Part shown: piece after piece, positions 1 to 53,039 of the stretch | Layout of the letters: every line of letters starts with the position of its first letter | How positions within the stretch are numbered: the stretch's first letter is position 1 | Source of the DNA: Hormiphora californensis | Taxonomy: Eukaryota > Animalia > Ctenophora | Length of the DNA: 64,000 nt | Direction: 5' to 3' | Assembly: GCA_020137815.1 (NCBI GenBank) | Contig: CM035351.1 | Coordinates: forward strand, 1,674,001 to 1,738,000 | Translations under genes and position numbers: made by a program | Notes under the pieces: model-generated | Seen by the model: the letters and a program-made list of their open reading frames with translations, nothing else | Database searches by the model: none | Told to the model about the DNA's origin: nothing

Positions 1-9481
<9,481 letters not shown>

Positions 9482-9513
9482 CTTGCTGACTATTAGGGGA
9501 TGGAAAGGTAATA

Positions 9514-10178
9514 GGGTAGCGACTGGCTATTTGAAATGGCGGCTAATTTGAAACACCCCCTCTACAGGCCAGCAGGTGCACCAGATTTGGATTTTTCCCT
9601 GCCCGGGTGAATGCCTTCGGCATTCACCCGGATGCCTTTTTACTTTGTAAAAAGGCATAGCAGGGTTAGAATTCGAAAACGACATTTTGGTATACCAACT
9701 AATCGGTAGAGGGACCATTTTGGTCACACTTTCGTTGCGAGGGGCAACCTCGCGGCGCGCGCGATCTGACACTTGCGGAGTAACATGCGCGCGCGCAAAC
9801 AATTGAAATTTTATGAGGGGCGCACGGCTATAAACTGTAACGGGCGGCAAAATTTGTTTTATATCGGCTGCACGTTTTGATCGGGGAAAATGGAGAAATT
9901 GAAAAATCTGTTCTGCGTTTTGTTCAAAAATTCGAAAAACACAAATCCCCATTTTGCGGACAGCTTACTCGTTGGGCGAGTTGAATGGCAAATCGAAGAG
10001 GGCAGGGAAACGTAGCATTATGGATACATAATGCAAATAATTCTTGTTAGACATCAGTGGGCTTGGCATGAGTTTTGACTAGCCCACTGATGTCTAAAAA
10101 TCCAAATCTGGTGCACCTGCTGGCCTGTAGAGGTGGTGTTTCAAATTAGCCGCCATTTCAAATAGCCAGTCGCTACCC
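9514..10178. mobile_element. 665-bp MITE with ~85-bp TIRs between two divergent genes
   Basis: GGGTAGCGACTGGCTATTTGAAATGGCGGC...GGATTTTT is inverted at ~10096-10178; TA on both flanks; internal hairpins at 9602-9631 and 10047-10097. Confidence 0.9.
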
Positions 10179-10346
10179 TATACTTATATCAACAACATGT
10201 ATTAGGGTGTTTGTTTGCACATCTGTCTGTCTGAAATCTGCAAGTTTACATGGAAGATCTGAGTGAGTGTGTGTGAGCTACGCTAGCACACTGTACTAGA
10301 GAGAAGTAGACATTGTAGAGAGTGGTAGACAGTCTCTCTTTCCAAC

Positions 10347-13300
10347 ATGTTTCGTTATCTCCTTCTTCTTCTCGTCTTCCTGCCAGGTAACATTGTCATT
10401 CTTTATTACTTTTAACTGTCCCAATTTGTCACTGTTGTGTTATCGTATTCTCTCTCGCATCTTTGTCTTGTTTGTCTTGTTCCACCACCAACTGTGTCCA
10501 TCGTTATACCGTGTCCGCCAGGTGCGGTGAGGTGTGGGGACCTGATCAGTTACTGGAGGTTGGACAGCGAGGTTCTGACTCTAAAGGACCATGTCAGGGA
10601 GGCTAACTGCAGTGGGTACTACCAAACATTCGTCCTGCGACCCTTCCCCAGTACCTATCTATCCAACGAGAAGAAGTCTTTCATTGAGGTAAGAAGGGAG
10701 TTGTCTCTCAAAATAGTGTCCTGGTAAGTTGTCTAATCGGCTCTCTCCTCGTGCGGCGTGACGATTGAGAGATACTGACGTACGATTCACCTTGCCCTCT
10801 CTCTCCTGCTGACTTTGAATGATGGATCGTTGTTATTTCGTTGCAGACAAACTCAGAGATAGCAATGACTAATGCCAACTTTACGATTATCTTGGACCTA
10901 AAGATAGCCGATACAGATGCGGGATACATTCTACAGTGGGAGAACTACTACTTCAAGTTCGCCATTTATCAATTAGACTCGCAGTTGCTACAGTTTATCT
11001 GGATAGACAAAGGTTAGACTAACGATCAGTATGTAATGTCAAACAGTTTGTTTTATAAGCAGGATTAACTAGTAAGGACCGACTAAGGTGATACCAAACT
11101 AAACCAACCCAATATGAGTGATCCCGACTACTGTTCTTCAGGCGGTGAGCGAGTGAAGGTGACGGAAGAAAAGGTAGAATGGTTGGATCACAGTAGGATC
11201 TCAATAACGTATGATAGGAAGGATATCTCCCTGTACATCAACGAGATACTGACATACACCACCACCATAGAACGTAATGAGCATCACAATATCTTCTAAC
11301 TAATGCATCTTTACAACCTGATGAGCTTCTTTTTTTCTGAGTGTTTTAATTCGAGCCTGGCTACTACCTTCACAACTCAATTTTAACTTTCGTCTTGCCT
11401 CTGAATGCTATCTTCAAATTTAACTAATTCTCTCTCCCTTCCTGCAGTTCCCAGGACTCTGACCAATACGGACTACAAGTTCCAGCTGGGTCAGAATACT
11501 GAGTGTTACATTAAGTCGTGTGCACTGTTTGATAAGGTCCTGAATCTGGCGGAAAGGAACTCTGAGACAACACGTCTAGATAAAGGTAAGGGGGAAGCTA
11601 TTATCTAGAAGGGTTAGTAACACTGTTACTTTGATTAAAACTTAGTTTGATAAGAGTTGAAAAAGTTACCAAGCTGGGCAAATTCATTTAAACACCAGGT
11701 TGTTCGGGGAAGTTGAAGATCAATGGGATGGAGGTACCTGGAAACCAGTACGCAGTGTACCGACAGTGCATGCAGGGAGGCTTCCTAGAGTACCTTTGTA
11801 AATACGATGATGATAAGAGCTGGTGGCAGGGATCTGGACCTAATCCTTGTGATTTTAGTGGTACGTCCGAGAGTTAATTATTAACAGATTAAGTGGCTCA
11901 TGTGACTGTAACAATCAGTTATTAGTAGAGAGAGTTCATGTCCTTGTTAGAATCAGCCGTTGCCATAGCTACAAGAACGATTTAAATCTTATTCAGGGAT
12001 CTATGCGCCGGACCGGGCTGTTAGGGTGGGTAATGATGTTGTATTGATTGGGAACAGAGAGAACTCGACAATTGATCATCAAAGTGTGTCCTGGTATTTC
12101 CCAAACGGTACCAAGATTGTCAGTGATAATGACAAGTATGTGATAACATATGGAAATGAGATCTCAGAGAGGAACCTAGATTGGACCCAGCTGCTGATAA
12201 AAGACACCACGTATCAAGATGAGCTGGTCTATAGGGTGGAATTTGCTTTTAGTTCCGGTGTAAAACTAACGGAATACGTCAAGCTGGATGTCGTAGGTAG
12301 GACTCTCGACTTCCACATCACCTTTCTGTCCAACTCACCCTTAGAATCATTAATTCCTGAACCAGATAGTAAAATGTAACACTTCCCCACAGAGGTAGTG
12401 TTTCCGAATCCTCCTTGTAAAACATAATACTTCCCCCTCCCCACAGAGGCAGTGTTTCCGAACCAGATAGTAACACAAGATACCAACATGTCGGTTAGCT
12501 ACCGAGTTTGGAACAATGCGGACGAGGTCACTAAAGCTAACTGGGTGGTGTCTGATGAGGATCTGTTTGTGTCAACAGAAGATACAACCGTGTTAGGAAC
12601 CTCGGTTTCAACAAAGGATAATAAAAGTAACGGAACGAGAGTCGTTTACACGTTCTTTGATACAACGTCAAGAGTCAAAGAACCCGTCTACAAATCAGGT
12701 ATCAAATTTACTGGGTTACCTTGCTCAACCCTACTTCCGCACGTTTGAACCAAACAAAACACTGGGCTAACTCAAGAAGTACAGCTCAGTAAATCTATGT
12801 ACAATATGTAGAGGGCAGTATGCAGTAGGGGCTGGTGGTCATTAGTGAAACACAAGTCATTCGATACCCGATACGTGTTATGTGTCGAGGGGCAGCTCGA
12901 TGTAGTATCTATGTAGGAGCAGAATCTTGGATGTCAATTACCTAAGTACACAAGTTTCCAGCTCTAGAAACAAGCAATAATTTCAGTTACAATAACGAGA
13001 GTATCTAATGGGACAGAATTCATAGGATGTAGGATCGAGGGTCTAATTGAGGAACCCATTTGTGCTCAGTGGTTCGACACTGCTGGAATCTGTATCGACC
13101 AGGTGAGAAAAATAGTATATTATCTAGTGAAGTACACTAGTGAAGACGCCTTAAAATTCCAGAAGTGAGAATTGAACAACTTCATTTCAGGATGATCAGG
13201 AGACTGTGAGTGGAATCACAACCACCTACCTCAACATTACTGAAAGGGACGACACAGTGTTCTACTGCAACTTTACCATAAACCCCAACTCCATCTCTAC

Positions 13301-16300
13301 AAACAAACTGAAACTAACGGGTAAGCTGTACACACCTTCCAATTCCTCCAAAAGAGGGAATGGGAAAACATATTGCTGCAGCTTTATGATAGTCCTTCCC
13401 CCTTTCTTAGAGGTTGAGCACAGCTTGAGATCGAGGATATTGTACGAATCGAGTGAGAGAGTGATCAGGGCGGATTATGATACAGATCGGAATCTAACGT
13501 TCTACTTGAATGGGTTTACTGAAGATGGCAAGATTGGGGCCCAGATGTACCTCGGTTACAACAACTCAAACCTTTACTCGAATGCTACCATCGACTTTGT
13601 AGGTACGTGACAAATGGTCTCTCTCTCAACAAAGGAGTGTTAAAACTTTACAGTGCAACATATTGGTCCAAATGCTTGTGCAAGCTTTATCAAATAACCT
13701 AAAATGTCAGTATAACAAGATAAGTAAAAGCATATGGCTCAGATTTCAATAGATCTAACCAGTTGTTCCAAACCTTCCTAGAGATAAGAGGAAAATCAAA
13801 AGGTTTGCTGCGCCAGAGTTTTCTGGGCTGTATGCTACATGATATAACCCTAAGCACTACAATTGCATCTAAAGTGCTGTGGAGAAACAGATATGGGCAA
13901 CAAGTTGTAAACAATGCCACTCACAAATACGTCTACGGTAAGAATCATCTCTTTAGAGAGACAGCATGTCTGAGATAACGAGTTACTTCCGGTTAGCAAA
14001 CAATAGGGGAAGCAGTTAAGAATGTAGACTCTGAATCAAGAACACCAATTACAGGTCTCACTGTAACCATGGTAACATTTCAGATTTGACTTCTCCAGAA
14101 TGGTATTCAACCAATCTGACAATTGATAACCTCTACCAACAAGACTACACCTGCAGGTTCTACTTTGATCCCTTGGTCTACATTGAGCTAACCCAAACTG
14201 CTAATGTTGGTAAGTAACTTTTAGACTATATCTGGATAAAATACAGCTAGCTAGAAGATGGCACATTGAACCTCCCATATGAGCTGTTGAAATTTGTGAT
14301 TTCTTTCTCTCCTCTTTCAAAGTGCCATCTTCTAGCTCCGTCCTTGTTGGGAGTGGCACCTGGAAGAGGAGAGAAAGCGTTGTGTGAAGATTCAACTACA
14401 ACGTTTTCCCTCTTCTTTCAGGCTGGTGGGCTCTCCTTCTTGGGACCTTTACCCTGGGAGTACTGACTTACATTGCCGCTGTCTTGATTGTGCTGTACAT
14501 GAAACTACGTATCAGAGGACCGTATTACTCTGATGAGCCAGCTTTGACAGACGTCAATGTCACATCATTTACCAGTGGATCTCATGTTGATAGTTCCCTG
14601 AGGGACACAGTGTCGGTAATGGACAGATTCAGGACACAGGATGAACAATCAATTGACCAGTCAATATCGCAAATTGGAACAAAAGTTGGGTCTCTAATGA
14701 ACAGATCTCTCTCCAACTCCTCCCCGAGGTCTGATACCCAGGCTAGGACACTATCTCAGATGATCGACGAGGATAGGAAACAAGCAGCGTTCCTCCCCCA
14801 GCGAACACTAAAAGACCGAGTTTATGATTTCTTCAGGAAGTCTGTGGGCCGTGCCCCGGGTGATATAAGCCCCGAGGGTGTGGAACGTTCCGACATGTTA
14901 TCGGATGTTCCAGGAGGTATTTCATCAGCTAGCCAGGGTCTCCGACAGAGGAAGATCAACACTGTTCGACTCAGTAGCATCGGGAGGAGTGAAAACTGGA
15001 ATAGCAACACGACCACCAACTGTAACAGACAGAAGTAACATCTCACTGAGCTCACAAGAGCTGTCTTCATTTAGCGCTGTTACAGCAGCACCAAAATCAA
15101 CTGCAACAGCACCTGGTGGAGGGGAATATGATGTGTTAGACCCCTCAGAGGTATACGATGTTGTCCAGCCTACCAGTACCGCAGCTGATCAATCTCATGA
15201 TGGGGACATCTGTACAGGCCAGTCTAGGCGAGTTCTGAAGACAGAGACTACACTGCCATCAGTGAGGGTCCTGTGTATGACACGATCACCCCAGGACTCA
15301 TCAAGTCCACGCTGAAGGACACCACTCAGGGAGGAATGAGCGCCAAGGATCTGAGGAACAACCTGGCTGCGTTGAGGGGAACAGAACCAGCTCCCACAAG
15401 AGGTGGATCAGGAGGGGTAACTTACGACTTCCTGACAGAGAATGATGTCCGGTCCATAATCTCCAAGATATCGGACTATTCAGAGATTCACCCTGAGGAT
15501 TCCGTTAGTCAGGTAGGAGCTTATCAGACCTTCCAAGCGAAGAGATCGAGAACAGAAACACCTGTCACCAAAGCACCTGCCACTGTACAGGAGGAGGAAG
15601 AAGAGCTGAAATCAATTTACAAATCTATCAGTGCTTACAGTCCTAAACCCACAGAAGAAGAAGAGGAAGAGGAAGGGCCAGCGAGGGTATACCAACCGCT
15701 CTCATCCGCCTCTGCTAAATCAAGGGTCAGTTTCCACTTGGGACCTGATCACGATGAGACTAAGTACTCGCTGGGATCCAATATGAGCAGAATGAGAAGG
15801 AAAAATAAACAGCAACAAGCCAGCAAAGCTTCCTCTAAAAAAGCAGCTAGCAAAGCAGCAAGTAAAGCAGCAAGTAAGGCGGCAAGTAAAGCGGCAAGCA
15901 AAGCGGCAAGCAAAGCGGCTAGTATGGTATCTGATAAGGCAGCAAGTATGACACCCAGTGACCCAGGAGATCGGAATTCCAGTTTGATGTATAGTAAACC
16001 AGTTAAGAAAGTGGAATCAGAAGTATCTAGCCAGGAAACACCTTCAACTGTGAGAAGAGCAACTTCACAACACAGCACCCTGGCTCCCTCTTTCCACAGT
16101 TATCAGCCTACTGAGTCAACGCTTAGAGCCGAATCTCAAGTGGTCTCTGAACCTGGATCTTCACTTGGGTCCGTCAAGTCGAGGATTGCTCAATTTGAAC
16201 AAACAGCTTCAGAACAACCTGCAACAGTTGATAGACTGCAGAGGAGCGTGTCAAACGAATCTGTTGTTCATCCTTCAATTATTCCAACGGAAGAATCAAT

Positions 16301-17855
16301 TTACGATCAGATTTATTCTTCTCAACCTCCTGAGGAAGAAGTTCACGAATCTTCGAAATTGTCGACCAAACAATCTTCTCGAAAGAGTAGCAAGAAATCT
16401 AAATCTTCCAAGTCATCCAGGAAGTCATCCAAGAAACAGGATGAAGTGGAGTACAGTCTGGAAGATGATGAGACTTATGACATTCCAGCACAGGAATCGT
16501 CAACGAAAGATACAAGTACCAAACGATCAGTTGAACATAAATCTCGCTCATCACGGTCAAAATATTCAAAACCTTCCACATCAGATATCAATTCTCCTGA
16601 ACAAGAACCAGAATCGTCAACAAGAGAATCAAAATCAGAAGACCGTGTTTACAAACCACAATCAGCGGAGGCCCCAACTAGCAAAACCTACAGCTCCCTT
16701 CACACATCAGAAAAGTCAGAGGGGGCAAAGAGCAAATCTAGTAAAGTACAATCTACTAGCAGCAGCCACAAAGACGTTACTAGAGAAAAGTCTCCCTCCG
16801 CTACAGTTGACCCCACCACTACCCAGATCCCTACTGAACCTATCACTATTGACAAGGATCCCAAAACGACTGAAGAACCAGCTTATAGCTTGGGAAAAGT
16901 ACCGGAGTACAATATAGACGAGCAGGATGAAGAGGTTGTTGAACCAGAGCCACCAGTGAAGAAAGAGGGCAAGTTTGCCAAGTTCCAACGTCTGATGCGA
17001 CCATCGGAGAAACCTAAACCGGCTGTGGAACCAGAGGAATCGTCAGAAGAATCATTGGAAGATGATGAAGAGTCGTCAGAAGATGAATTGTATGATGTCA
17101 TAAAGACCACAGAGCCAGATGAAGAGAGCAGTGAAGGAGAAGAAGAGAAGGCACCAGAAAAACCGGGGAAGAAACCTGGACTTGCAAAACAGCTCTTTGG
17201 AAAGTTCAAAAAGACACCAAAGCAGCCTTCAAAACCAGCGGATGCAATAGAGCCTGATCAAGAGGAGGAACCAGAAACCACAGAACAACAAACAACGGAA
17301 AAACCATCCAAGAAGTTCCGCACTCTCGGATCCTTCGTGGGCAGTGAACCTGTCCTTTACAGCGAGACATCCTCCTCGGAGCTGAGTGAGAGTTCTTACA
17401 ATGACGATGATTACAGTTACTACTTCTCAGACTCAACTGTTGCAGCGTTGATGAAGGAGCAACCCGGAGAGACCAAGTTCGATACTCCCTCCACGGCAGA
17501 GCAGGATGTCGTCTGGCCTGAAGATGAGCCATCTCCCACTTACTCCTCATCCTCTTCCCGATCTAGCGAGTCTACACGAACCTCCAGCGAGTCGGCATCG
17601 TCCTCGAGAACTTCCTCATCACGTACCTCCTCCTCCAGCTACACCGTGACAAGTAGCAGCAGCAGCACGGAATCCTCCACAGATGTCCCTGATGATAGGA
17701 CATCAGTGGTGTCCGGACAGACCCTGACATCAATCACTAGCGTGGAATATGGAATAGATAGTAGAGCCACCGGACTGACAATTAGTACTGAGACTGAGAG
17801 TGAATCTGATAGTGAGAGTGATACTTACTATAGTCCAAGAAGAGCCAAGCGGTAG
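10347..17855 (+). CDS. Type I membrane receptor, module/isoform A: signal peptide-LamG/pentraxin-like-CCP(sushi)-like-~5 Ig-like-TM-~1100-aa disordered Tyr-motif tail
   Basis: Exons 10347-10386 (MFRYLLLLLVFLP), 10522-10688 (LISYWRLD), 10847-11012, 11142-11273, 11448-11585, 11699-11860 (4-Cys CCP-like), 11997-12296, 12447-12698, 12987-13102, 13191-13320, 13411-13602, 13782-13937, 14084-14209, and terminal exon 14422-17855 (TM WWALLLGTFTLGVLTYIAAVLIVLY). Splice phases are consistent. Apparent frameshifts lie between ~14930 and ~15230. Confidence 0.8.
15818..15945 (+). repeat. Coding 12-bp repeat encoding (SKAA)n in tail A
   Basis: SKASSKKAASKAASKAASKAASKAASKAASKAASM with synonymous variation among units. 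Confidence 0.85.
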
Positions 17856-17978
17856 AATTATTTGAATTAGTTTTTTAACCTTTTGACCCTGGTGTTCACT
17901 GTTCAGCAATTAATTAGAAACAAACATCAGTGTATTATTTTCGGTGTACCAAAAATATCTATCTAACCTATTACCTAG

Positions 17979-20900
17979 CCGACAACCCAAGTCTGATTGG
18001 GTTCTGGAAGTTTAATGAGGACTCAGTGCTTATAAACTGGGCTGGAAATATTGATATTAACAAAGTTGCCGCAACCTCAAAACGACGCCGACGACGTTCA
18101 ACTGACTCCACACCTGAATACACGGTAAGTGAAATTGACTCATTCAACTGTCAATTTGCAAAATGTTTCAGGATAAAGGCGAACTTACTAATTTCAGACC
18201 ACGCAAGACATGCCACTGAGTGATACACAGTTCACCCTTGTGTTCGGGTTTACAGCTCCTTTGGCTGGCACAGGGGAGTTAGTAACCTGGGACAGTTACT
18301 ACTTTTCTCTAAACATCTCACTGGACAACAAGGGATCATTAACCTGGGGTTATAAAGATGCGGGAGTGGAAGGAAGTGGGAGTGTGCCCATCCCGGACAA
18401 CCTGAACCTTCTTGCTATTTCTTATGACAGAGAAACATTCAGGGGCTACAATCTGGAAACGTTAGCTAGCGTATGGACGCACACATTCACAGGTAAAAGT
18501 AATTGTTATCAGTACTTTCTAAGTCTAACAAACAGTAATTGTGAAATTCAAATAAGAGACATACCTACAAGTTGAAAAAGTATCATTTTTCAGGTTCATC
18601 CCTTGCAAACTACAACGATAATAACCAGCTTCTGAAGATTGGCCTCTTGACCGGTACTAGAGTCAGTGAGGTTTATATTTTCGATACGGTACAATCGACA
18701 ACTCGGGACACCATCACCAGACTAAATGAAGGTAAGAACGAGTTATTCATTGGTAGAAGTAAAGTTTCATCTATGTTGTCGTTATGATAATAATTCGTAT
18801 TTAGGTTGTTCGTTATTATCATATGACGGCGTTGTGATCTCTACCAGCAAGGAGACAGTTCTGGTAAACTGCAACAATGGGGAGGTAGTGAATGCCACGT
18901 GCAAGTATAATGACACTGCATCTTACTGGGATGGACAGTTACCCAACAGTTGTGATATCAGTGGTAAGTAAGGAAATGGGACGGTAAATCAGGGTAAATG
19001 GATAGTATACTTGACAATTTCCAAGCAAAGAAAATTGGGGAGAAAGAGATAGCTATGCCCACAAAGAAATCTAAGTTTAACACCAAAGATTTCAGTGGTA
19101 TATGGATCAGTAAGTGCGGCTCTGACTGGAAGCTCAACAACCCTCACATGCACTAGACGTAACGCTACTGTTACCGTGACTGGAACTAACTGGAAACTAC
19201 CCAACGGTATAAGACTCTCTCTCCGTCCTTTGCACTAGTTTTGTTATAATGTGGTTACAAATGGTAAATCAAAATGATGAACAAATTTTTTCCAGGAACT
19301 GAAATAAACTTTGAAACCGTTGATGTAATTGATGGGAACAAAGAGCAAAAGGCAACGCTTATTTTGACTGGTCTAACAAGCAGTGACTCTGGAACATACG
19401 AGTGTAGTTTTGAGTTCGAAGAAGGAAATATCGCCGGAGAAGCTAAATTAGATGCGCTAGGTAGGTATTTAGAAAGGAAAACAATCTCAAGCATCATAAG
19501 ATTTCACCCACTTCTAATAAGTATCTTGCGTAATTTCCATGAATCAAATCTATTTCTGTACTTCAGATCTGATCGGACCGGACGTCATTGCCGTGAGGGG
19601 AGAGAGCGCAACCGTATCTTGTACCCTCTCACCGGGTCAATTTACTAAAGCCACCACTGCATACTGGCTAGATGCTACGGGCAATGCTCTACAGAAAACC
19701 AGCACAAGTACAAACATCAAGTGGGTGGTATACGAGGCAACGAAGGATGATTCCTTCACCTGTGATTACACGGTTGGAGGTGTCTCTCTGAACCACACTG
19801 TACAGCTGAATGTAGCTGGTGTAACGGTAACAAATGGTGTGTGTTCAGAGGGGGAGGGTACAGCTGTCAGTATCACCTGGAGTGAGTTACAGTACCCCAT
19901 TATCAATGTGACATGGTACAGCGAGGAGGGGATAGTTGCAGATGATACAGGACTCTATAGCTCAACTCTAACAGCTACTAATGTCAGTTTATTGGTTACC
20001 AAGGCAACACCTGGAATGCAGGGGCAGCACATGGCAGAGATCAGTTTTGGAAATGGCCAGCAAATAAACATTACATCGATTGTTGACGTCATTACGACTC
20101 CTGGGTCTGTACAACTTGTGGGAGACTCCTGGACAGAAACTAGAGTCCTGGGGCTCGTCAAGGATCTCTCTGTGTCTGTGTGGCAGGTCTATGTGACGGG
20201 ACCGTTAGGAGACAGTGACGCAGTAAGGGTGAAAGTGAGATTGAGCAAAGATTTCACAGCTGATACCGTAACAATTTTAACTCTTGACGGAGAAACTGAA
20301 CAGTTAGGTAAGTACGATTATGCTTAATATTTTTTCCAACCAATCTTTCTATTTTTTTCATCTTCACTGTGGGGCGATTGAGTGAATGAAAGTTCCAAAT
20401 ATTTAAACCAATTATGAACAGGCATTACATGTGACACAAACCTGTCGTTGGTACAATGTAAAGTGGGCACAGAGTTACAATCAGAATACATAAATGAAAT
20501 GAAATGGTTACTAGAGGACAATTCTGTGGTAGCAGAAGGAGCCAGAATTGGCTTCACTGCAACAGTCCCTAAATCTTCAAATCCAGTCTTCTTCGAGTTA
20601 AATATTGGAACTACTGAATCTTGGAGCATAGAAGGTAACATTTAGTTTTGTATCTAGACAGTGGCACTTCCAAGCTGTGATGACTAGTTGCCCTGCTCGA
20701 ACCTGTGCCCAACCCTTTAGTGATATAGGTCGAATTGCCCCAGTTTACACTTAACCCCATACTTCAAGTGACCACAATTTTAGGTGCACTGATATCCCCT
20801 GAAGTAGAGATGACAGCGGATAAAGCGTTTACCCTGCGTCACACTGGTAGTGTAACAGATCTTGTGCTAAAGGGTTACATAACATCTGATACGGTGGTAA

Positions 20901-23097
20901 CAATGCTGTATAATATCGAGGGATACCAATCAGAGGCACAACACATCCTCAGAAAATTAGGTTCGGAAAATAATCGAGGGTTATGTACTGTGGGATTTAC
21001 TAATCCAATAGTAGGTATAGCTATTATTATCAGTAAGCATCTATAAAAACACCAACCTCTAACATCGACAACCCCCAATATATTTTAGATGTTACATCAA
21101 ATGATGTCATCACATCCAGTACGGAGGCAGTCACACTAAGTTGCACGGTGATACCAATGAGTTTACAACTCAACACTTCCCTCTGGGTTTACAACGACCA
21201 AACAAACCTACAAAACTCGGTAGGCAACACATTTGGCAACGCCTTATTTAGATGCACATTTAGTCGTTGATTTTTAAACTCTCGTCCCAAAATTCTACAT
21301 TGCAGGACCTATTGGTTACTGAAAACGAGATTAAAAGTGAGATTGAGATCAGCAAAGTTGATTCCAGTACCGAGGGTCAATACGAGTGTGTCATGAACTT
21401 TGGATCGTCAGGAACGATGCGAAACCCTGTGAATCTAGACTTCATAGGTATTAATACTCATTACGTTTGGGAGAGGTTTAATTGAGCTAGGGTGTTTATA
21501 CTTCAGTCACAATTTTGACCTGAGCCCAAGCCGGGTTCGCATGAAACCACTTGAACAACTTACAAAACGAATTACTGCTGGATTGGTTTATAAATGTCCC
21601 GGGTTGAGACCTGTTATAGTTAGAAGGAGCTAGGCATACAAACACAAACGATCGTAACTGGATTTGTTAGCGCCATCATAAGATCGGATGTTGTTGTGCA
21701 GGGAGGAGGTATAATAAGATTCACCCCGACACAGTTAACAAAATCAATTCCCTCCTTCTCTCTCGATTTAGAGATCAATTCGGTGAGCTCCCAAGATAGT
21801 CAGGACGGGACGACGGTAAACTGCACCCTAATTGGATCGGAATCCGAGCCAGTTAATATTGGGTGGAATGTTGATGGACAGTTTATGACTGGTTCTAGCG
21901 ATATTCACATAGGTACAGGTAATTTTCAGCGAGCTGTGTTTCTGGTATCACATGAACATTTGCTGTTTTTAAACCCTTTCTCCCGTAATTGTTGCCTAGC
22001 TAGACTGTGTTTCGCGCGCCCCGCCCGTAAAGGAGTTTACAAGTTTACAAGTTTACAAAATTAGATTCGGGATACAATGCATAAATACAAATATACCACG
22101 TTCTCAGCATGTTGCTTCTACGTACAATGATGTGAGGGTTAGAACATAACAACGTAATTGATGAAAAGTTCCAAGTACGAACGAACAGATGATATTCTAT
22201 TTCAGAAATTTCGAAGAGCAAGGAAGCTTGGACGAGTGCACGGTTGACTGGCGACGGTTACAAACCGTCTCTTGAGTGTGTCTTTATGTTTGAAAATGGC
22301 TACACTGCTACCGCTCAACCTGCATACCAGTTGAAAGGTAAGATACACAGTCAGGTATATTGTCTGAAGTTGAAACTTAACTCGAATGTTTCTTTTCAGA
22401 TTCAGAAAGTGTGTCAGCAGTATCAATCCTCATCTTTCTGATTCTTGCCCTGGCCATTCTTTCACTAGCAGCTGGGTTTATCTACCTGAAAACCAAGAAG
22501 CCAGAATCCCTGAACCGGATCACATCTAGTGTCAAGGAGTCAACTCTAAAGAGGATCAGAAGACGGAGGGAGGATACAGATATTGAGGATGAGAGATATG
22601 ACATGGCTCCGGATGATAGGATTAAACTACCAGTGATCGCAGAAACCAGCCCAACTCAAAGTTCCATTTATGATACCTGGGATGTGTTTAGCGAGACATA
22701 CCAGAACCAATCTGTTGCACACAGCCCGGGACAACCTATTGCTCCTCAACAGATGTCAGAACCATTAGCTACCTACCAAAACCAGGTCCCAGCAGTTGCT
22801 GCGGCTGTCTACCAAAATCAAGAGACCTCCTCCCCAGAATTACCGAACTATGCCAATATGCCAGCTTCATCCCCTGATTCACCAAGCTACACTAACCAAG
22901 AGGAGGGAGTAGTGTATCAGAATGAGCTATTCTCAGATCATGGGGTGTTGTCAGGCAATGGTCGAACACCCGAAGAGGAGGAGATTCTATCAGCACCGAT
23001 TGCAGAATACGCCAGTTCAGAATCACAAAGTGTGGTAGCCGAGAGTGTGCTGTATGACAACCCCGTTGTCAGTTACTCAAACATCCTTGACAATTAA
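17979..23097 (+). CDS. Module/isoform B: LamG/pentraxin-like-CCP-like-multiple Ig-like-TM-~200-aa YxN-rich tail; no ATG or signal exon of its own
   Basis: Exons 17979-18124 (LIGFWKFNE), 18198-18492, 18594-18731, 18805-18963, 19096-19206, 19296-19460 (DSGTYEC), 19567-20307, 20422-20634, 20784-21014, 21089-21219, 21306-21447 (EGQYEC), 21772-~21915, 22206-22337, 22400-23097 (TM ILIFLILALAILSLAAGFIYL). Homologous to module A (FTIIL..LQWENYYF vs FTLVF..VTWDSYYF; CKYDD..W.G..PN.CD vs CKYND..WDG..PNSCD). Confidence 0.8.
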
Positions 23098-24565
23098 TGA
23101 TGTATGTTGTCAAATCCGTTGTTTCTTTGTTTCTTTGTAAAGTAAATTTGTGTCTACTGTCTTAGATGAAATACCATAAAATTCAAACGATGCAAATTGG
23201 GCGTCTACTGTCCGGTAAACATCTAATTTTTTAGTCAAGTCAAGTTTTTTTTCGGCTAATGTGTCCTTCATACTGCCAAAATTCAAACCCTGCGGTTTGG
23301 GTCGACCGTCCAGAAATCAAATGGCTCGTTAACAATCGAGGGTAAATTCATGATTCAAAATTTAATGGAAATTTGTCGTCCAGTGAATTAGGAGACATGT
23401 TTAAAGGAGCTATTTTTACAGAAGTAGGAAGTCATAGCAAAAATCTAAATTTTTGAAAATGTGAAAAACGGCCATCTTGAAAATACCAAACCATTTTTGA
23501 AATTTCATTTATAAGTGGCAATTTTCGCGCCGCGCAGAAGTATGCGCGGCGTGATATTTGCGCGTGACATTTTGCGTCCTTCAAATTTCTGCGCTGACAA
23601 GCACGAAATTAGCCCTATTTACATGTAACTTATTGTCTACTAAAGCTTATAAAGATCATTTTCTTAAACGTATGAATTACTTTTAGAAATATAACGACAC
23701 GTTCATTCAGGTATTCATAAAAAACATGAATTTAAAATTACAAATTTGAACAAACAACTCTGTTTTGCTCCAAACTTAGTATATCAATAACGGTTGTGTG
23801 CAGCAACAATATCTGCACTGTTTTCATCACAAGAAAATGTATCTGATCAAGCTCGTCCAATAATCCCTGTTATGTAAGGTCTTGCCCTAAACAACTACAC
23901 CTTACTAAGACGTATCTTTTCACCCGATTCTTCTAGTAAAACCACTCTTTCCCAAATACACTCCAATTAATATTATCAAGTTACCTCAGTTAGTTCCAGT
24001 TCAGACACACAGAAACACACCTTAACACACAAGTACTACTAGACAACTCTGACGAATAGACAACCTAAACTCAATACAAAAATAAAGCATACCATCGCCA
24101 GGGTATAGAATATTCCCAATATTCAATCGTCAAACCATATTCAGATATAATTTAGTAAAAACACGATACATGTAAATTCACTAGTTTCTCTATCTCTCCC
24201 TACCTCGCTTTCTAACAAAATATTGTGACAGTATAATAGCAGCCGGGGGTGTGAAAATAGTGTGTGATATATGTACAATGTGTTTACAGTCTTTTGCTCC
24301 CCCAATATAGGAAGAAGGGTAATAGGATCTCTCCGTAAAACGTCATCTGTCTATCTGGTTTATAAATCTCCTATTATTGATCTGGATATAAACGTCCATC
24401 GTGTGCAAATATAAATTTATCCTATAATATTCAATTAATTCCCCTCCCAGTAATGTCCATTAAATTCTTGTTATAATTTCATTGCTGCATCCTGTTCTTC
24501 CCCTGTGTTGCGGTATATCAGCCCCATTATCAGCTAGTACAATCTCTCTCTTGGTGTTGTGTTAT

Positions 24566-27500
24566 TCACGCATCCTTCACGATAAACCACCATTGTGATG
24601 TCTGAAAGGATAGAAAATGTTAAAATAGAGAGACAGGAACAATGATCTAACTAAACACACTACACATAATAAAGTTAGTTAGACGGATGGTAGTTAGTTT
24701 GCTTTACTACAGTTCCCCACACACTCAATTTAGTCCCCACACACACACAATATTTACCTGAGATAGTCCCCTGGAATGAATGGAGCTCCAGGGAAGGGTC
24801 GGTTTGGGTGAGGGTTCTGTCGTTGTAGGGTCATGGTATAGGGGTGTTGTTGTTGGTGTTGTTGGGGGAGTTGCTGCTGACCGGGTAGACCCATTCCTCC
24901 AAAGTTGCGAGGTAACGTCTGAGGAAGGGATGAGGGTTAGAAAAACGAAGTATTAGAGGTATATTAGAGGGATATTAGAAAGAAATTAGAGGGATAATAT
25001 TTTATCGAATAATAAGGAGATGACAGGAATCCAATGGGGAGGACAGACTAGAGAAACCAGGTTCTAACACTCATTACCACTAAATACCCCACAACATACC
25101 TGTGCATTATTGCCATTGAACACATCACTATACATGTTCTCGGTGGGGTCCCGTTGAGGGATGGTCATCTGTAACAACCTCTCATCCTCAGTTGTCATGT
25201 GGCTCCGATAAGGACTGTTACTTGCCACCTTGTCCAGCCCCTCGGGCATGATAAGGGTTGAGGTAGTGTTAGTGGAGCCTGGTCCCATTGTTTCTAGTGT
25301 CGACTTTTTCTGGGGAGGAGGAAGGGTGTTATTATTCAAGGGAAGATCCAAGATAATTTAGGGTTTATACTAGCTAGGATACTAGCTAGGAGGAAAAAAC
25401 TAATGGATGAGACAGTATTTAAACTGTTGATGAGAGATGTGGTAAATCACCACCATCACACTGTCCCAACACTTACCATGTAACTGATGGGTGTATCATG
25501 TATTATGTTATGGGAGTTAACCCGGTCTATATTCCTCTTCTTCAAACTTGAGTTACTGCCACCAGTGTTATCCCTCCGACTAGAGCTCCGTCGAGTATAG
25601 ATCATCAGGAACACTATCAGACAGATAGAGATAACAAAGAGGGAACCAAATACCAGGGCCAGGATTTTAAATAACTTGCTCTCGGATGATCCGCTATACC
25701 GGGCTTCGTTAGCACCTTTATCGCTGACTGGAGAGATGGATGTGTTTATGAAGGAGCACTACAAAACAACACATTTGTAATTGTAACCTACTAGCTAGAA
25801 TTGTAACCTACCGAGATCGACTAAGGATTTGATATGGCGAGCAAGGCAAAGACTTACTTGTAACGTTTTGACTGATTGGCTCTGATTGTCTGGGTTTCCA
25901 TGTTCCGGTAAAGGTACAGTTCCTAGTTTCCCTCTTGATCTCCTTTATTGAAGGGTAGACATCAAATGTCTTGATGGTAGTTAGTCCCTTGGAGCATTTC
26001 TCTGCAGATTCATCACATGTCGGCTCACATTCTCCCTTGTTCACCCATTTATAGGTTGAGATACGGGTGAATACATTGGATAACTTGCCCTCTATTGGAT
26101 CGTTTACACACTGGGCTGCATCACTGAAATTGAAAGGGAGTTAGATGGAGGGAGTTAGGGGGAGGGGAGTTAGAGGGAGGGTGAACTAACTAGAAATTCA
26201 AATAGAATGTTACGTAACCATCACCCACTTTACCAAATCAAATCTAGAACTCTACTCCCCCTATGACCTCTTGTAACTCTGTTTGTTTCTTGCCACTTAA
26301 TCTAAGTACCCACTAAGTACCACTACTGCAGGCAGTGATATAATCCATCACTACGTAACCCCAGATAATTCACTCACCAATCGTTCACATTACTACAGGA
26401 ATGTGAGGTCATACACCAGCAACAGTGGGGGTCTCGCTCCACAATACACTGGTTCAGTCCTGTAAAGGCTTTACACTGGGAGACAGGGAACCGAGTCATG
26501 CTCTCCGGGGAGGCGGCTATCAGCACACGATTCTGAAACAACAGACACCAGTTAGACTGGGTTTAACTAGAGCTGTGTAGTAATTTCCAAAAATTTAACT
26601 ACTTTAGTAATTTCAACCCCCCCCCCTGACTGACGCCACCAGATTGGACAAGATAAGAGCCGGGTCACACCACCACCACCACCCTGACCTCGCGCGCCCC
26701 CTGAGTCTGTTCCGCGCGCCAGTGCCAACGAGACTCTCTGAAGATTACACCAGCGCGTTACATCAGGTCACAGCACCCTTCCGCAAGTTATTAAAACAGG
26801 GGGCTTGGCTGAGACCTGATACTTTAGTCAAGGCACTGACGTCACAGGTCATAGATTACACCCTGATTACACGATATGACATCAGTCCTCAGTGTGACTT
26901 AGCCTCTCTCGAGAGGGGACATGATAAGGAGCCTGGAGCCTATCGATATACCCTGACTGTGTGCCGTAACATGTGATATCGGTACTCGTGAGTGTGTACT
27001 GAGTACTGAGTGTACTGTACTCTCTCTCTTTCTTACCTCACTGTTGGTAAACTTGAGCATGGTAACGGGTGAGTGAGTATCAGCCACCACGAACTCAGAA
27101 ATCAGGACGACTTTGTTGGTTTTGGGGGTCAGGGATAACTTTTGAACACTTCCACTGTCAGTCCCAAGATAGATCACGGTCATCTGTCCTATATTATCCG
27201 TCAGGATAGATGTGAACCTGAGAGAGAGAGAGAGAGAGAGAGGGAGGGATTATTAGCAGCTATCTATAGTGCATGGAGCTATAAGAGAGAGAGTCTATGT
27301 TTGTCCCCCCCCACCACACGAGCTAATATTATAACTAATGGCTCCCTCTCTCCACTCATTATAGGAGCACTTAGTTTCCTTGTGTTGTGAGTCTCTAGAG
27401 AGGGATAGATAGAGGGATGGATGGAGGGGATAGAGAGGAACCATGAGATTATGTGATTTCGAATAAAGAGGGATTTACGGATTTTGTCTACTGAAAAGTA

Positions 27501-31641: not shown

Positions 31642-34600
31642 TTGGAGCAAGTCTCAAGTTGGTAATAATTGAACAATAAAACACCGGAAATATAGGCTCA
31701 CCCGGTCACCCCACGCAGGCCCAAACCTACTTCCTATTGTGGGTACAACACTTCGAGAAAAGTGTAATTTTTCCCAGATTTAAAAAGAAGAAGGTATAGA
31801 ATAAAGAAGACCTGGTGAAAATAAGGTCTGTATGTATTTCTAATATATTAGAATATATTAGAATATATAACCGACCGTGTGTCTTGAAATAATGAACTGT
31901 CATCAAATGAAAGGCATGCTAGATATATCCCTCACATCTTACTTACGTTCATCATAATATATCATCCCTATATATCTTCATTTCCTATCCTGTTCATTAT
32001 TTCATTCTCTCTCCTTTCTTTCCTCTAAATCTCTCTCTCTCCCTCTCTTTCTTTAGTTCTAATTTCTCCCTGATAGCTCATCTCATCAATGATCGTTATG
32101 GAACATCATAGAATGTTCTGGAACTGTGGTCAGTGAGCTTCTTTGTTTCAAGTATTTGGTTTTCTTTTCACATGGTTTTGTGGTAGGAACCTCCTGAGGC
32201 CGCTATCGCTTAAATCCACACTACTGTTGGAAAATTGCCAGGGCCGGAGGTAAAGTTCTCCCTCTATCTCTCACTCCGTCTCACTTTCTCTCTCTCTCCT
32301 TACCCCTCACGTGGGTTGGTAACACTGACAAATGAGCTGACGAGAAAGCTGAGTTGTATACGGATGTGAGACATATTATTATGTGTATGCAAAACAAACA
32401 TACCCTAGCTGGGGCTGGGAGCGGGCTCCAATGGGTGCCCAGCTGAGCTGCAATACACTGCCAATAGGACGTGCACCTCCTGCAATACACACTTGGAGTT
32501 GTGATAGGTAATCCGAGTATACGTGACACTTGCGTGTGATTGGTGAGCTTTACAGACGAACTAACAGTCACTAGATCATGATGATATTTTATCATGAAAA
32601 ACAAAAACATAAATATTATATCATTCAACTTACGTCGAAGGGGTATCGAGGTGACTCTTCCACCTTGGCGCCATCACTATCATATACGTAGTAGTTACCA
32701 GCAAAACTAGCGTCTATATCTTCCAATGAGTAGCTGCAGACTGCATAGCTGAAAATAGAACTCTTGATAAAAAACAAATCATCAAGAGATATTGATATTG
32801 TACTTTTTAGTATTTTAGAGGCAGGAAGAATAATATCACTCAACTATCAATGTCGATCTGAATATGAGGACAGAGTGTCTACTGTCTGTGTTGTCTATCA
32901 CTCGTGTCTTGTCTGTCATGTCTGTCATGTCTGTCATGTCTGTCATGTCTGTCATGTCTGTCTTGTCTGTCTATACTCTATATATTCTTGTCTTGTCTGT
33001 CATCCTTACCCGACAATAACGACATCAAGGTACTGGGTAAATGTAGCATAGAGTCTCTGGCTTTCTGCGTTGAATGTTGCAGAATAGACGACCTCAAAAT
33101 CAAGGTTGACCTTAGCGGAAACCTGCATCTCGCAGGTAACTTCAGTCTTAATGAACGATAGGAACATCGTATTGACTATATTCGACTGAGGGGGAGATCT
33201 GGTTAGAGGGGGTTGGAGGGATCGGGTTCTACTTGGGTTCATGGAACATGTCGGTACTTCAAACAGTGTGGATATTTGTTTGTTTGTGTGTTCGAATGCT
33301 GCGGACAACTTGTAGAGCTGTGTGAAACAGGCTCACACTTAGCTTTAATCCTAAACCATTCTCTCTCTTTGCTTTTATCAGGGTGTGAACTGCATGTCGT
33401 GTTTGCTAGTCGCGAGCGCGCTTGCGAGACAAGCAAACACGTCAAGGTTCATTAACAAGCATGCTGCTCAGTCATTTTAGATTTAATACACAATGTAAGG
33501 ATACCATGTAATAGGTGAGACTCTTGCCGTCACCCTCGTTCAAGTCCCGTGAAAAACGGAGCAGTACACGCAAACTGATGCCCATTTTCCTCGCGTGACC
33601 CCGATTACACATTTCCCCCCCCCCTTTTTCCCCCCCAAATTTTCCCCCCCCCTTGGTTTACACAATTTTTAAAAAATGTACCCCTTTTCCACCCCAAAGG
33701 ATCCGACAATTGACAACAAAAAAAAGATCTTTGCGTAGGAGTAAAAATGATGCACCTTTTTTTTTCACCCAAAAAAATTTGAATAGGGGGCTGTTGGGGA
33801 GGAGGCTGCTAGGAGGGGGCCAATAAAATTTTTAAAGTAAAATTGGACTTCTAAAGCACGCTCCCCATTTTGAAAAATTTAAAAAGGTTTTCGAAGAAAG
33901 AGAAAACCGGGAAGAGGGGGGAGGGAAAAGAGAAGAGAGAGGGGAAGAGGGGGAAAAAAGAGGAGAAAAAAGGGAAAAAAAGGGAAAGAAATTTGGGGGG
34001 GAAAAATGGGAAGTGAAAAAGGGGCCCTTTTTTTTCCATGGCTCGTTTTATTCCATTTTTAGTTTTTTAAAATTTGGTAGATAAAATTAAAAGCCTAAAA
34101 TAAGATTTTGTCAAAAAATGGGTGTTTTTAAAAGGGGTTGAAATTCCCCTAAAAAATTACCCCCCTTTCCCTTTTTTCCAGCCCCTTTTTTAAAACTTTA
34201 AATTTAATTGAAAATTTTTTTTAAAAAGTTTGCAAATGGAACACCCCTAAAAATGTTTAAACCCCTGGGGGGTGGGTTTTCCCTTCCCCCAAAAATTGAA
34301 AAACCACCTAGAGTTTTCCCCCGCGGGGTTCCTTTTTATTCATATTTCCCCCCCAAGTGGAAAATTCCCTTTTCAAACTCTTTTCCGGGGCTAAAATTAG
34401 GGTTCCAGGGCCGGGTAATGAGAAAATTTAAAGGGGGAAAAGGGGAATTTAAATTTGGGCCCCCCCAACCCCCCCGGGTTTAGCGGGCCCGGCCCTTAAG
34501 AGTTTGGGCCGAGGGATTTTAGGGGGCCAAGTATGGGGTGAGAAGGGGTTAAAATTCATTTGGGGAACCCAGGAGAAAAAATTGGTTTGTGAATAGATAT

Positions 34601-37600
34601 TGAAGTGGGGAAGAAGAATTTAGGAAGGGAGGAGAAAAGAGAGAGGGGTTTACCTTTTTTGGTCCTTTTTTGGGGGGGGTTTCCCTTTTTTTTTTTGGGG
34701 GCCCCCCCCCCTTTTTTTTTTTTTTTCCCCCCCTGGGGGGGGGGAAAAGGGGGAAAAAAGGGGGGGGGTTTAAATCCTGGATACCATCCCCCCCCCAAAA
34801 AATCTGCCCACTCACCAAACCCCTTTTTTTCCCAAAAGTGCACCCCTACACCCCGGGGCTGCGGCTGCGCCCGGCAGGTAATTCTCAGGGTTTTAATTTT
34901 TTTTTTAAAAAGAACCTCTCTTCCCCCTCCTTACAAATTTCTCTGGCTCTCTCCCCCCTCCCTCTTCCCCCCCCAATTAAACAAAACTTTTATTTCCCCT
35001 GACAAAAATCAATAATCCCTTCCCCGTGCCCCCCGGGGTTCCCTGATTAAATCTGACAAAAAATTTTGTCCATTTTTAAAAAAGATAAAAAATTTGCTTA
35101 AAATTTTTTGGGGGGGGGGGGTTTTTTTCCCCCCCCCCGGGGGGGAAAACTAGTTTTAACCCCAAAATAAATAATTAAACTACGCCCCACCTTTTCACCT
35201 ATTTGTTGAAGTACATGCTCTTGCCCTACTACACTTGTCTCTATGAGGGGAAAAACGCCCCCCTCTTTGAACTTTTTTCGGGCATTATTTTCCCATTGAA
35301 AAACGTGTTTTTTAAAAGGGGGGGGTCAATAAAAAGCCACCAGTATAGTTTTTTTTCCAAAAGGTTTATTTATTATCAAAAGATTTTTTATCACTTTTTT
35401 TTTCCCTTCCCCATTTCCCCTAATCTAAAACTGCCCACGCTGCATCCCATTGTGGGGGCAGGGGAAAAGAAGGGTTTGGTTTTTATAAGAAAAGGTGGAA
35501 GAGAGATCGGGGAGAGAGAGGGGGAGAAAAGAGAAAAGGGGAGAGAGAGAGAGAGAGAGAGAAAAGGAGAGAGAGAGGAGAGAGAGGGGAAGAGAAAATT
35601 TGGGAGCAAGTCTCAAGTTGGTAAAAAATTAAAACAAAAAAAAACCCCGGAAATATAGGCTCACCCTCCCCCACCCCCAAGGGCCCAAACCTATTTCCCT
35701 ATTGGGGGTAAAACCCCCTTGGGAAAAAGGGGAAATTTTTTTCCCAGTTTTAAAAAAAGGAAGTTATAGAATAAAGAAACCGGTGAAAATGGTTTTTTAT
35801 GTATTTCAAATATATTAGAAATTTAGAATATATAACCGACCGTGTGCTTAAAATAATGAACTTCATCAAATAAAAGGCATGCTAGATATTCCCTCACATC
35901 TTACTTACTTTTAAATCAAATAATCATCCCTATAATCTTCTTTTTCCTATCCTTTTCATTTTTTTCATTCCTCCCCCTTTCTTTCCTCAAAAATCTCTCC
36001 TCTTCCCCCTTTCTTTTTCTTTGTTCAAATTTTCCCTCCCTGAAAAGCTCATCTCATCAATGATCTTTATGGAATCAAAATGTTCTGGAACTTTGGTCAT
36101 TGAGCTTCTTTTTTTCCCAAGTTTTTGGGTTTTTTTTTCCATGGTTTTGGGGTGGGAAACCCTCCGGGCCGCTATCGTTTAAAAACCCAAACACTACTTT
36201 TGGGAAAAATTTGCCGGGGCCCGGGAGGAAAATTTCTCCCTCATCTCTCACCCCCCGTCTCACTTTTCTCTCTCCTCTCCCCTTTAACCCCCCCCCACTT
36301 TGGGTTGGTAAAAACTCAAATAAAGCTGACGAAAAAGCTGATTTTGTTAGGAGGGAACATATTATTATTTTGTATGCAAAAAAAAACATACCCTAGTTTT
36401 GGGGCGGGAGCGGGCTCCAATGGGTGCCCAGCTGGCTGCAATCCACTGGGAAAATTTTTTGGGGGGAATTTGGGGGGCCCCTTCCCTTGAAATACACATT
36501 TGGGAGTTGTGAAAAAGGGTAAAAAAAACCCGGGGTATCGTGACCTTGCGTGTGATTGGTGAGTTTTTTACAGACAACTAACGTCACAGACCCAATGTTT
36601 ATATTTTACCCATAAAAAACAAAAACAAAAAATATTAAAATTCATTCAACTTAGGGTCGAAGGGGAAATCGAGGTGACTTTTTCCCACCTTGGGGGGCCA
36701 CACATCATTACGTAGTAGTTCCAGAAAAACACGTCTATATTTTCCCCAATTTAGTAGCGGGCAGATGCTTTCCTGAAAATAAACTTGAAAAAAAACAAAT
36801 CATAAAGAGATTTTTGAAAATTGTACTTTTTAGTTTTTTAAAGAGGCAGGAAAAAATAATACCCACTCAACTATCAATTCGATCTGAAATTAGGCCCGAG
36901 TGCCCTACTGCCCTGTGTTTCAAATCACTCGTGTCTTGTCTGTCATGTCTTCTGCCCTGTCATGTCTGCCCAATGTCTGTCAGGGTCGTCTTGTCTGTTA
37001 TCTCATATTTTTTGGGTCTTTTTCTGTCATCCTTCCCCGAAAAATAACCTCAAGGAAACGGGTAAATGTAGCTAGGTCCCCCTTCCTGGTTTTCCCTGCG
37101 TTGAATTTTTGGCAGAATAGCCCCGACCTAAAAATCAAGGTTGACCTTAGCGGAAACCTCCCATCTGCAGGAAACTTCAGTTTTAAATGAACAAGGGAAC
37201 CCTCGTTTTGGGCAAATTTTCCGACTAAAAAGGGGGAGATCGGGTTAGGGGGGGTTGGCGGGATGGGTTTCCTTTTGGGGTTTCATGGAACATTTCGGTA
37301 CTTAAAACCCTTGGGGAAATATTTGTTTTTTTGTGTGTTCGAATGCGGGCGGACAATTTGTAGATTTGTGTGAAACAGGCTCACACTTAGTTTTAAATTT
37401 TCCTAAACCATTCTCTCTCTTTGCTTTTACCCAGGGTGTAAAAACGCATGTTTTGTTTTTCTAATTTGCGAGCGCGCTTTCGAGACAAACAAAAACGTCA
37501 AGGGTTCCCCCAACAAGGGAAAGCTGCTCATTTATTTTTGATTTTTAAAACCAAAGTTTAAAGGGTACCATGTAATAGGTGAGCCCCTTTGCCTCACCCC

Positions 37601-46600: not shown

Positions 46601-47123
46601 CTCAAAATCAAGATTGACCTTAGCGGAAACCTGCATCTCGCACGTAACTTCAGTCTTAATGAACGATAGAAACATCGTGTTGACTATATTCGACTGAGGG
46701 GGAGATCGTGTTAGAGGGGGTTGGAGTGATCTGGTTAGGGGGGGGGGGGGGGTTGGAGGTATCGGGGATATAGCACTTCTACTTGGGTTCATGGAACATG
46801 TCGGTACTTCAAACAGTGTGGATATTTGTTTGTTTGTGTGTTCGAATGCTGCGTATAACTTGTAGAACTGTGTGAAACAGGCTCACACTTAGCTTTAATC
46901 CTAAACCATTCTCTCTCTCTCTCTCACTCTTTGCTTTTATAGCCGCCAAGCATTTTACATAATTCTCTCTCTTTCTCCCTCTCAGCCTTTTTACGGAATA
47001 GCAGCTTTAGTAGTGGGGTATTGTTAGGTCGTGAGAGATGGGGAGGCACAATACAAAGGGTGGCAGCTTCGCATGCAGCTGACACTACTCTGTGAAAACG
47101 TCACTTTCCCACTTTAGACAAAC

Positions 47124-47183
<60 letters not shown>

Positions 47184-50100: not shown

Positions 50101-50566
50101 AGGTAAGAGTGGAGAAGGGGGAACTGGTGAGGTAAGCGGTGCGAGAGGGGGAACTGGTGAGGTAAGAGCGGAGAGAGGGGGGCACTGGTGAGGTTAAGAG
50201 TGGAGAGAGGGAACTGGTGAGGTAAGAGTGGAGAGGGAACTGGTGAGGTAAGAGTGGAGAGAGAGGGAAGTGGTGAGGTAAGAGTGGAGATGGGGAACTG
50301 GTAAAGGGGCCGTGGAGAGGGAAGTTGACGACGATGATCCCTAGTTTAGATTTCAGGAAAGAAGGTTGGATTCGGAGAATGGGGTGGTTTGGGTCTTGGA
50401 AGAGAGGATGATATAGGAAGACCTTGCCTAGTAGGGAGTCATATATCAGGCTATATTTACGACGTGTGTGTGTAGCGATGAAACCAGGGCCGTTAGTGAG
50501 TGGCACGGTTTTAGTTTTACAAGTGGTCTGCAAATTGGGTTTATTGCTCTGTGCAGGATAGAGACT

Positions 50567-50643
<77 letters not shown>

Positions 50644-51363: not shown

Positions 51364-51421
<58 letters not shown>

Positions 51422-52607: not shown

Positions 52608-53039
52608 CTGAGAGGAGTATACGATTGAATATGGAACACTTTTCTGGTGACGTTTCGAACTGATAAGATCAAAGTTGAAAGACTAAAGAGGTATCCTACT
52701 ACAACTAGCGTGGGTTTAAAAGACAAATCTATAGAATTCGGGGAAAATATAGGAGGACTAAAAAATAGAGGAAAAGGTAGTGGAAATCTACGTTTAAAAT
52801 TAGCTAAACCTTTTAGCCTTATCCAGGGCCCAGGCTTTATACTAAACGTTTTTAGCAGTTGGTTTTCTTATCTTTATTCGAATTTCGATAACAATCTGAG
52901 TACAATGAGTGGTATGCACAATCCTTAGCAACAAATGAGAAAATAATACTAATACTTAAATCACACTAACTAAATCAACAACTTACAAAAAGCTTCTTAA
53001 AGTCCGTTTTTCAACGACTACCACTTAAGTCTTGAATTT

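Follow-up and report, generated by a model that had tools for sequence, protein, structure and literature searches.

Does the tyrosine-rich tail of a predicted ctenophore receptor carry a genuine array of phosphotyrosine docking motifs and, if it does, what kind of adaptor would read it? The window, by which we mean the whole stretch of 64,000 nucleotides that was analysed, holds two neighbouring receptor-like genes on the same strand, gene A (10347-17855) and, directly downstream of it, gene B (17979-23097, +). The initial annotation had seen in the cytoplasmic tail of gene B, hereafter tail B, an array of YxN motifs of the type bound by the SH2 domain of Grb2, and had read it as a LAT-like signalling tail fused to a receptor in an early-branching animal. 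Here we ask which parts of that reading hold.

Gene B encodes a predicted single-pass receptor

Gene B, modelled from the DNA alone, has 14 exons and about 3.4 kb of coding sequence, and its 13 GT-AG introns all preserve the frame, the joined exons containing no stop. The last exon (22400-23097, +), which is free of stops in one frame and has 6-16 stops in each of the five others, encodes in order a short linker, a hydrophobic helix and a tail of 202 residues, such that tail B and the one transmembrane helix lie in the same exon. The predicted single transmembrane helix (22426-22482, +) has a mean Kyte-Doolittle value of 3.0 over 19 residues, compared with 0.75 for the best window of tail B; it contains no cysteine and is followed by basic residues. 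The 13 upstream in-phase exons, as spliced from the signals in the DNA, would give an ectodomain of about 900 residues.

We predict that this ectodomain consists of a LamG-like domain, a small cysteine domain and Ig-like repeats. Exons 1-3 (17979-18124, 18198-18492 and 18594-18731, +) encode the predicted LamG/concanavalin-A-like domain; exon 2 has no Pfam match, and in the Atlas it was assigned as LamG/concanavalin-A-like with a score of 0.95, all 10 of the 10 best family matches falling in one clan, from a match with only 120 of 256 features in common. Exon 4 (18805-18963, +) encodes a small domain with four cysteines which, from its pattern of Cys and Trp, may be Sushi/CCP-like. A PDB sequence search with this domain returned only four rows, to SH3 at chance level, and Foldseek gave no match at E<=0.001 to its single-exon fold model, itself of unusable quality (pLDDT 50). 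Exons 5-13 (19096-22337, +; exon 5 ends at 19206) encode the Ig-like repeats. Four of them have Ig-clan Pfam matches, with best E values of 1.3e-4, 1.3e-3, 0.022 and 0.12 that all fall short of the curated cut-offs, and four of the six library matches to the largest exon carry the names of Ig-repeat proteins; the single-exon fold model of the Ig region (pLDDT 34) was unusable. The exon lengths suggest six or seven Ig-like domains.

The 5' part of the gene has two further features. The first exon encodes six basic residues (K, then five R) at 18080-18100, a run without counterpart in the matching exon of gene A and which presumably resembles a furin/proprotein-convertase site. Between 18172 and 18198 lie two close splice acceptors, and the frame is kept by 18198 only; the upstream acceptor would fit with one base missing, so that an assembly indel is possible.

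Tail B carries a non-random array of eight YxN motifs

Tail B (22489-23094, +) is 202 residues long, contains no cysteine and matches no domain in Pfam or the PDB. It has 11 tyrosines, eight of which are in YxN: YQN at 22699, 22774, 22810 and 22915, YAN at 22849, YTN at 22888, YDN at 23053 and YSN at 23074, which reproduces exactly the list first drawn up for these roughly 200 residues. Six consecutive motifs form a core array (22699-22923, +) with spacings of 25, 12, 13, 13 and 9 residues, and a C-terminal pair, YDNP and YSNI (23053-23085, +), follows with 7 residues between its members. Four of the motifs are YxNQ and one is YxNM, and of the 12 Asn that tail B contains, eight are at Y+2.

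Shuffled controls, which the initial annotation had proposed as a check, put this excess far above chance: not one of 200,000 composition shuffles of tail B contained more than five YxN. Under a looser test, in which any residue at any of 7 offsets was allowed to count, eight was reached in 8 of 200,000 shuffles. Across six other coding stretches the background was 4 YxN in 45 tyrosines, and in a six-frame scan of the entire window tail B alone had at least 4 YxN per 100 open-frame residues. The YxN array of tail B is therefore real, statistically strong and strongly non-random.

A tandem-repeat artefact was ruled out, as none of the 10 TRF rows in 14300-23300 overlaps any YxN site and as the DNA flanking the motifs has 5-14 of 33 bases in common in all 28 pairwise comparisons, which is background identity. 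A non-coding RNA was rejected as well, with no Rfam match in 17000-24500. Across the eight sites the +1 residues are Q, Q, Q, A, T, Q, D and S, and the +3 residue varies too, with Asn at +2 invariant. Such constancy of one residue amid variable neighbours and variable flanking DNA favours selection for the motif over recent tandem copying.

The [ILVS]xYxx[ILV] pattern has one match in tail B, VSYSNI, near its end; the ending had been described as ITIM-like and it does fit the ITIM pattern, but at least one such match also arises in 8,947 of 20,000 shuffles, so its presence is at chance level. An ITAM, defined as two Yxx[LI] 6-9 residues apart, is absent, tail B having one Yxx[LI], and NPxY does not occur. 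YD occurs at three tyrosines (402 of 20,000 shuffles), including that of YDNP in the C-terminal pair. Sequence context that might name a kinase was looked for as an acidic-upstream excess and as an I/V/L excess at -1, and neither was found in tail B; I, V or L precedes 4 of its 11 tyrosines, a number reached in 2,009 of 20,000 shuffles. No cytoplasmic kinase domain is present, and tail B runs free of domains to the stop at 23095-23097.

Gene A is a tandem paralogue with a differently biased tail

Gene A starts with a signal-peptide exon (10347-10386, +) that ends in phase 1. Its ectodomain exons (10522-14209, +) comprise an N-terminal part paralogous to that of gene B followed by Ig-like repeats, and the remainder (14422-17855, +) encodes a transmembrane helix and a tail of about 1,100 residues, tail A. 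Exon 2 of gene B is homologous to 10847-11012 of gene A (E 4e-6), and exon 4 is 35% identical to 11699-11860 (E 2e-12); for the exon pairs 17981/10524 and 18596/11450 BLAST returned no alignment. On two of the four exon pairs compared, we regard genes A and B as tandem paralogues. Homology between the two tails was considered and rejected, with a best E of only 2.5.

The motif counts for tail A refer to 1,097 residues taken as three separate pieces; the join from 15210 to 15231 is either a short intron or a frameshift. It had been claimed that tail A lacks YxN and that the two tails use non-overlapping SH2 codes. The first statement stands, as none of the 36 tyrosines of tail A is in YxN, but with 0.5 expected, and zero also found in 1,800 of 3,000 shuffles, this absence is at chance level, and tail B itself has YD sites. 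A Fisher test of 8 in 11 tyrosines against 0 in 36 (p 5e-7) is driven by tail B. We therefore consider the codes of the two tails to be biased, not exclusive. The contrast that holds is between YxN in tail B and an enrichment of YDx[VILP] in tail A, with seven against 0.42 expected (0 of 3,000 shuffles); Yxx[LI] is also enriched in tail A (10 against 2.3 expected, 0 of 3,000 shuffles), and both enrichments come from 12 patterns tried and were picked after the sequence had been read. Tail A also contains a 12-bp tandem repeat at 15840-15919 (6.7 copies, 91% matches) that encodes a Lys/Ala/Ser repeat.

The 5' end of gene B

Only 123 bases (17856-17978) separate the stop of gene A from the start of gene B, and this gap contains neither a signal exon nor an A[AT]TAAA signal; ATG is absent from 17850-17980. 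With neither a start codon nor a signal exon in this gap, gene B is possibly incomplete. Among 39 candidate first exons in 8000-17990 the best was the signal-peptide exon of gene A, and the first exon of gene B (17979) begins in the phase in which that exon ends. Gene B may thus share exon 1 of gene A; its 5' end could also be explained by an assembly gap or by 5' truncation.

Sharing of this kind could be taken further, to a single locus in which a common signal-peptide exon is switched between two whole receptor bodies that differ in their tails, a nephrin-like tail for Nck/Crk in A and a LAT-like, eight-valent tail for Grb2 in B. We think this improbable. If it were true, ctenophores would have built both classic phosphotyrosine condensate scaffolds independently of vertebrates, and would have placed both on one paired Ig/LamG receptor, perhaps to signal cell contact or self-recognition.

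Relatives, transcription and genomic surroundings

When the transmembrane helix and tail B were searched against proteins of 406-2000 residues, all longer than the tail itself, none of 7,488 candidates had an orthologous tail. In searches of metagenome contigs, tail B matched none of 367 stretches and an Ig alignment none of 225, and an alignment search with the cysteine domain gave 0 of 23 candidates. The largest exon of gene B, as a single-exon query against 1.84 billion representatives, had six weak matches, none at 1e-10. A protein of 124 residues (P0007), at 33% in its alignment to that exon, may be a true relative. Exact look-ups of four ORFs of the window found none of the four.

No RNA of the same species was found, and no RNA run was listed for 10000-19900. 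The one run considered, X1, comes from a more distant relative; it has no cover on tail B and is uninformative on expression. A 3,000-nt contig of this run aligns to the neighbouring Sema-domain gene as three pieces that are closer together than in the genome, and it looks like spliced RNA of that more distant relative. A 198-nt contig on the cysteine-domain exon of gene A, with 7 differences in 59 bases, a depth of 4 and loose ends that are coding-like, is a weak hint that the receptor family is transcribed in another ctenophore.

The Sema-domain gene (24500-27250, -) is a multi-exon gene convergent with gene B, with a Sema domain (E 5e-9) and a transmembrane exon. Further away, a single ORF at 54505-56100 (-) encodes a cytochrome P450 (E 3e-42) that, across 62% of its length, shares 94% identity with a Pleurobrachia bachei protein, and this match places the window in a Pleurobrachia-like ctenophore, in agreement with the early-branching animal proposed from the letters alone. 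The P450 has only six relatives at E<=1e-40, at 56-94% identity, which suggests a lineage-restricted family. The region 34500-53000 is made up of long, degenerate, purine/pyrimidine-rich stretches of low complexity, with GC skews of -0.83 and +0.65, which resemble a noisy repeat assembly and are the source of many spurious ORFs. A near-identical pair of ORF-like stretches about 13.5 kb apart (33006-33332 and 46514-46882, -) is either a repeat copy or an assembly duplication.

A proposed model of docking on tail B

Our model starts from features that are directly visible in the DNA: the exon chain, the one hydrophobic helix, the excess of YxN, a tail without a catalytic domain and the paralogy with gene A. 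From these we infer the ligand, kinase, reader and output of the receptor. We propose that gene B encodes a predicted kinase-less, single-pass ctenophore receptor and that its eight YxN motifs, once phosphorylated, probably bind a Grb2-type SH2/SH3 adaptor multivalently. The LamG/Ig ectodomain would bind a glycan, matrix or cell-surface ligand, leading to receptor clustering, and a cytoplasmic kinase of the Src, Abl or Syk type would phosphorylate tail B in trans. Several Grb2 molecules could then bind each tail and be bridged by Sos-like, proline-rich partners, such that receptors become cross-linked and the clusters act on Ras/MAPK or actin. As the sister receptor, gene A would have another output, through Nck/Crk-like YDx[VILP] sites.

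The choice of Grb2 follows from the motif. Asn at +2 is reported as the main determinant for the Grb2 SH2 domain, which upholds the initial reading of pY-x-N as its ligand, and pYxN is described as enriched in EGFR-family tails across metazoans (10.1101/273516). Grb2 homologues have been reported from a sponge and from choanoflagellates (PMC7260276); the literature passages retrieved contained no report of Grb2 in a ctenophore. Modelling of trivalent LAT indicates that gel-like aggregates are possible (PMC3291652). The Atlas clusters nearest to the helix plus tail B include SCIMP (0.85), poxvirus A36 and LIME1 (0.81), which at scores below 0.9 we treat as leads only.

One feature of the array speaks against Grb2 as its reader, namely that four of the YxN sites have Gln at +3, a residue that Grb2 does not need. 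Asn at +2 is preferred by other SH2 domains too, and the group is wider than Grb2, including Grb7/Grb10-, Fes/Fer- and tensin-type domains. The motifs might accordingly be under selection for one of these, for a ctenophore-specific SH2 domain or for a PH domain, with an output other than Sos/Ras clustering. Nothing in the sequence of tail B names the reader, and the PH domain of GEP100 is reported to bind the YXNQ sites of EGFR (PMC3507883); since Grb2 is described as older than animals and is the best-documented reader of YxN, we nevertheless hold another reader to be unlikely. The +3 Gln could instead mean that tail B chiefly recruits STAT, or recruits Grb2 and STAT side by side in the manner of EGFR; YxNQ would attract STAT through YxxQ, YANM would add PI3K p85, and the tail would work like that of a cytokine receptor. 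YxxQ occurs four times against 0.7 expected (46 of 20,000 shuffles), each time as YxNQ, +3 Gln is over-represented even when only the YxN sites are counted (post hoc p about 0.001), and pY1068 and pY1086 of EGFR, both YXNQ, are reported to recruit Grb2, Shc and STAT3 (PMC3507883). Yet +2 Asn is found at eight of eight sites and +3 Gln at only four, the lone YxxM is at chance level (3,091 of 20,000 shuffles), and ctenophores are said to keep the fewest conserved Jak-Stat proteins (PMC11193209), all of which makes a STAT dock, whether as the main function or shared with Grb2, similarly doubtful.

Least probable of all, in our opinion, is that there is no present docking role, either because gene B is a duplicate that has lost its 5' end or is not expressed, or because the motifs are left over from old internal repeats. 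The want of a start or signal exon of its own would fit truncation, but some 3.4 kb of exons have stayed open with canonical, in-phase splice sites, and exon 1 of gene A is in the right phase to provide a signal peptide. Likewise YQN is common to four motifs and YQNQ to three, at spacings of 12-25 residues that would suit an ancient repeat, but Tyr and Asn have been kept at eight sites with flanking DNA at background identity. We continue to favour a Grb2-type docking tail.

Comparison with known systems

LAT, NTAL (LAB) and LAX resemble the product of gene B in having a single transmembrane helix and a domain-less tail with several YxN, a description that tail B fits with eight of its 11 tyrosines. 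LAT is reported to have three distal YXNX (PMC3291652), and NTAL 10 tyrosines with five YxN, an exterior of 6 residues and a CxxC site (PMC2196071). The resemblance ends there: the exterior of LAT and NTAL is a few residues, whereas gene B has a predicted ectodomain of about 900, and these adaptors carry a juxtamembrane CxxC palmitoylation site, whereas gene B has no cysteine in the helix or tail. No Pfam match of tail B to LAT, NTAL or LAX was found at E<=1. With its large ectodomain and no cysteine for palmitoylation, gene B is not a member of the LAT family, and the phrase 'LAT-like tail fused to a receptor' has to be reduced to an analogy, there being no sequence link to LAT and no sign of a fusion event. 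LAT homologues are, moreover, reported absent from amphioxus and ascidians (PMC5431462; PMC12582321). The likeness is probably due to convergent use of short motifs, not to descent.

EGFR-family tails are also described as bearing several pYxN, including YXNQ common to Grb2 and STAT3. Unlike them, gene B lacks both a kinase domain and NPxY, and it would thus need a kinase in trans. For tail A the model is nephrin, a kinase-less Ig-superfamily receptor whose tail tyrosines are reported to recruit Nck multivalently (PMC9333988), YDxV being given as the Nck motif (PMC3507883). Nephrin has nine Ig domains and an FN3 domain, and the review that describes it knew of no non-bilaterian orthologue (PMC10084454). 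Nephrin and Kirrel start with Ig domains, whereas the products of genes A and B have a predicted LamG-like domain at the N-terminus, followed in B by the small cysteine domain. Choanoflagellate transmembrane proteins with YxxP arrays, such as PTSG_05573, are, like B, kinase-less, multivalent, built on a single phosphotyrosine code and non-bilaterian, and YxxP peptides are reported to bind the SH2 domain of choanoflagellate Crk (PMC5043372). Their code is YxxP rather than YxN, and from their description the ectodomains are unrelated.

Hydractinia Alr and Botryllus FcoR are described as clustered, fast-diverging invertebrate Ig-superfamily receptors whose tails are unlike one another and bear tyrosine motifs (PMC9546547; PMC12582321), an arrangement that A and B, with their Ig-like repeats, resemble. 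Those motifs are ITAM, hemITAM and ITIM, in contrast to the YxN of B, and the published descriptions set B apart from both: 'YxN' does not occur in the main text on Alr (PMC9546547), and YxNM is stated to be absent from the FcoRs (PMC12582321). There are also only two paralogues here, compared with the clusters of Alr and FcoR. The amphioxus FrLRR, considered as a precedent, was rejected, as it is described as having no cytoplasmic tail (PMC10199209).

Among the literature matches listed, from a library with few subscription papers, none dealt with a YxN array on an Ig receptor of a ctenophore, and the receptor pair is apparently undescribed. It is a variant on a known signalling design, given that a kinase-less receptor with a single-code phosphotyrosine array is already known in nephrin and the choanoflagellate YxxP proteins. 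Vertebrate lymphocytes are the main source of known LAT-type multivalent Grb2 scaffolds, and invertebrate chordates reportedly lack LAT. If our model is correct, the eight YxN of a ctenophore receptor would exceed the three distal sites of LAT and the five of NTAL, and a LAT-type design would have arisen convergently near the base of the animals, directly on a ligand-binding receptor. Gene B also gives studies of ctenophore contact or immune signalling a specific candidate receptor.
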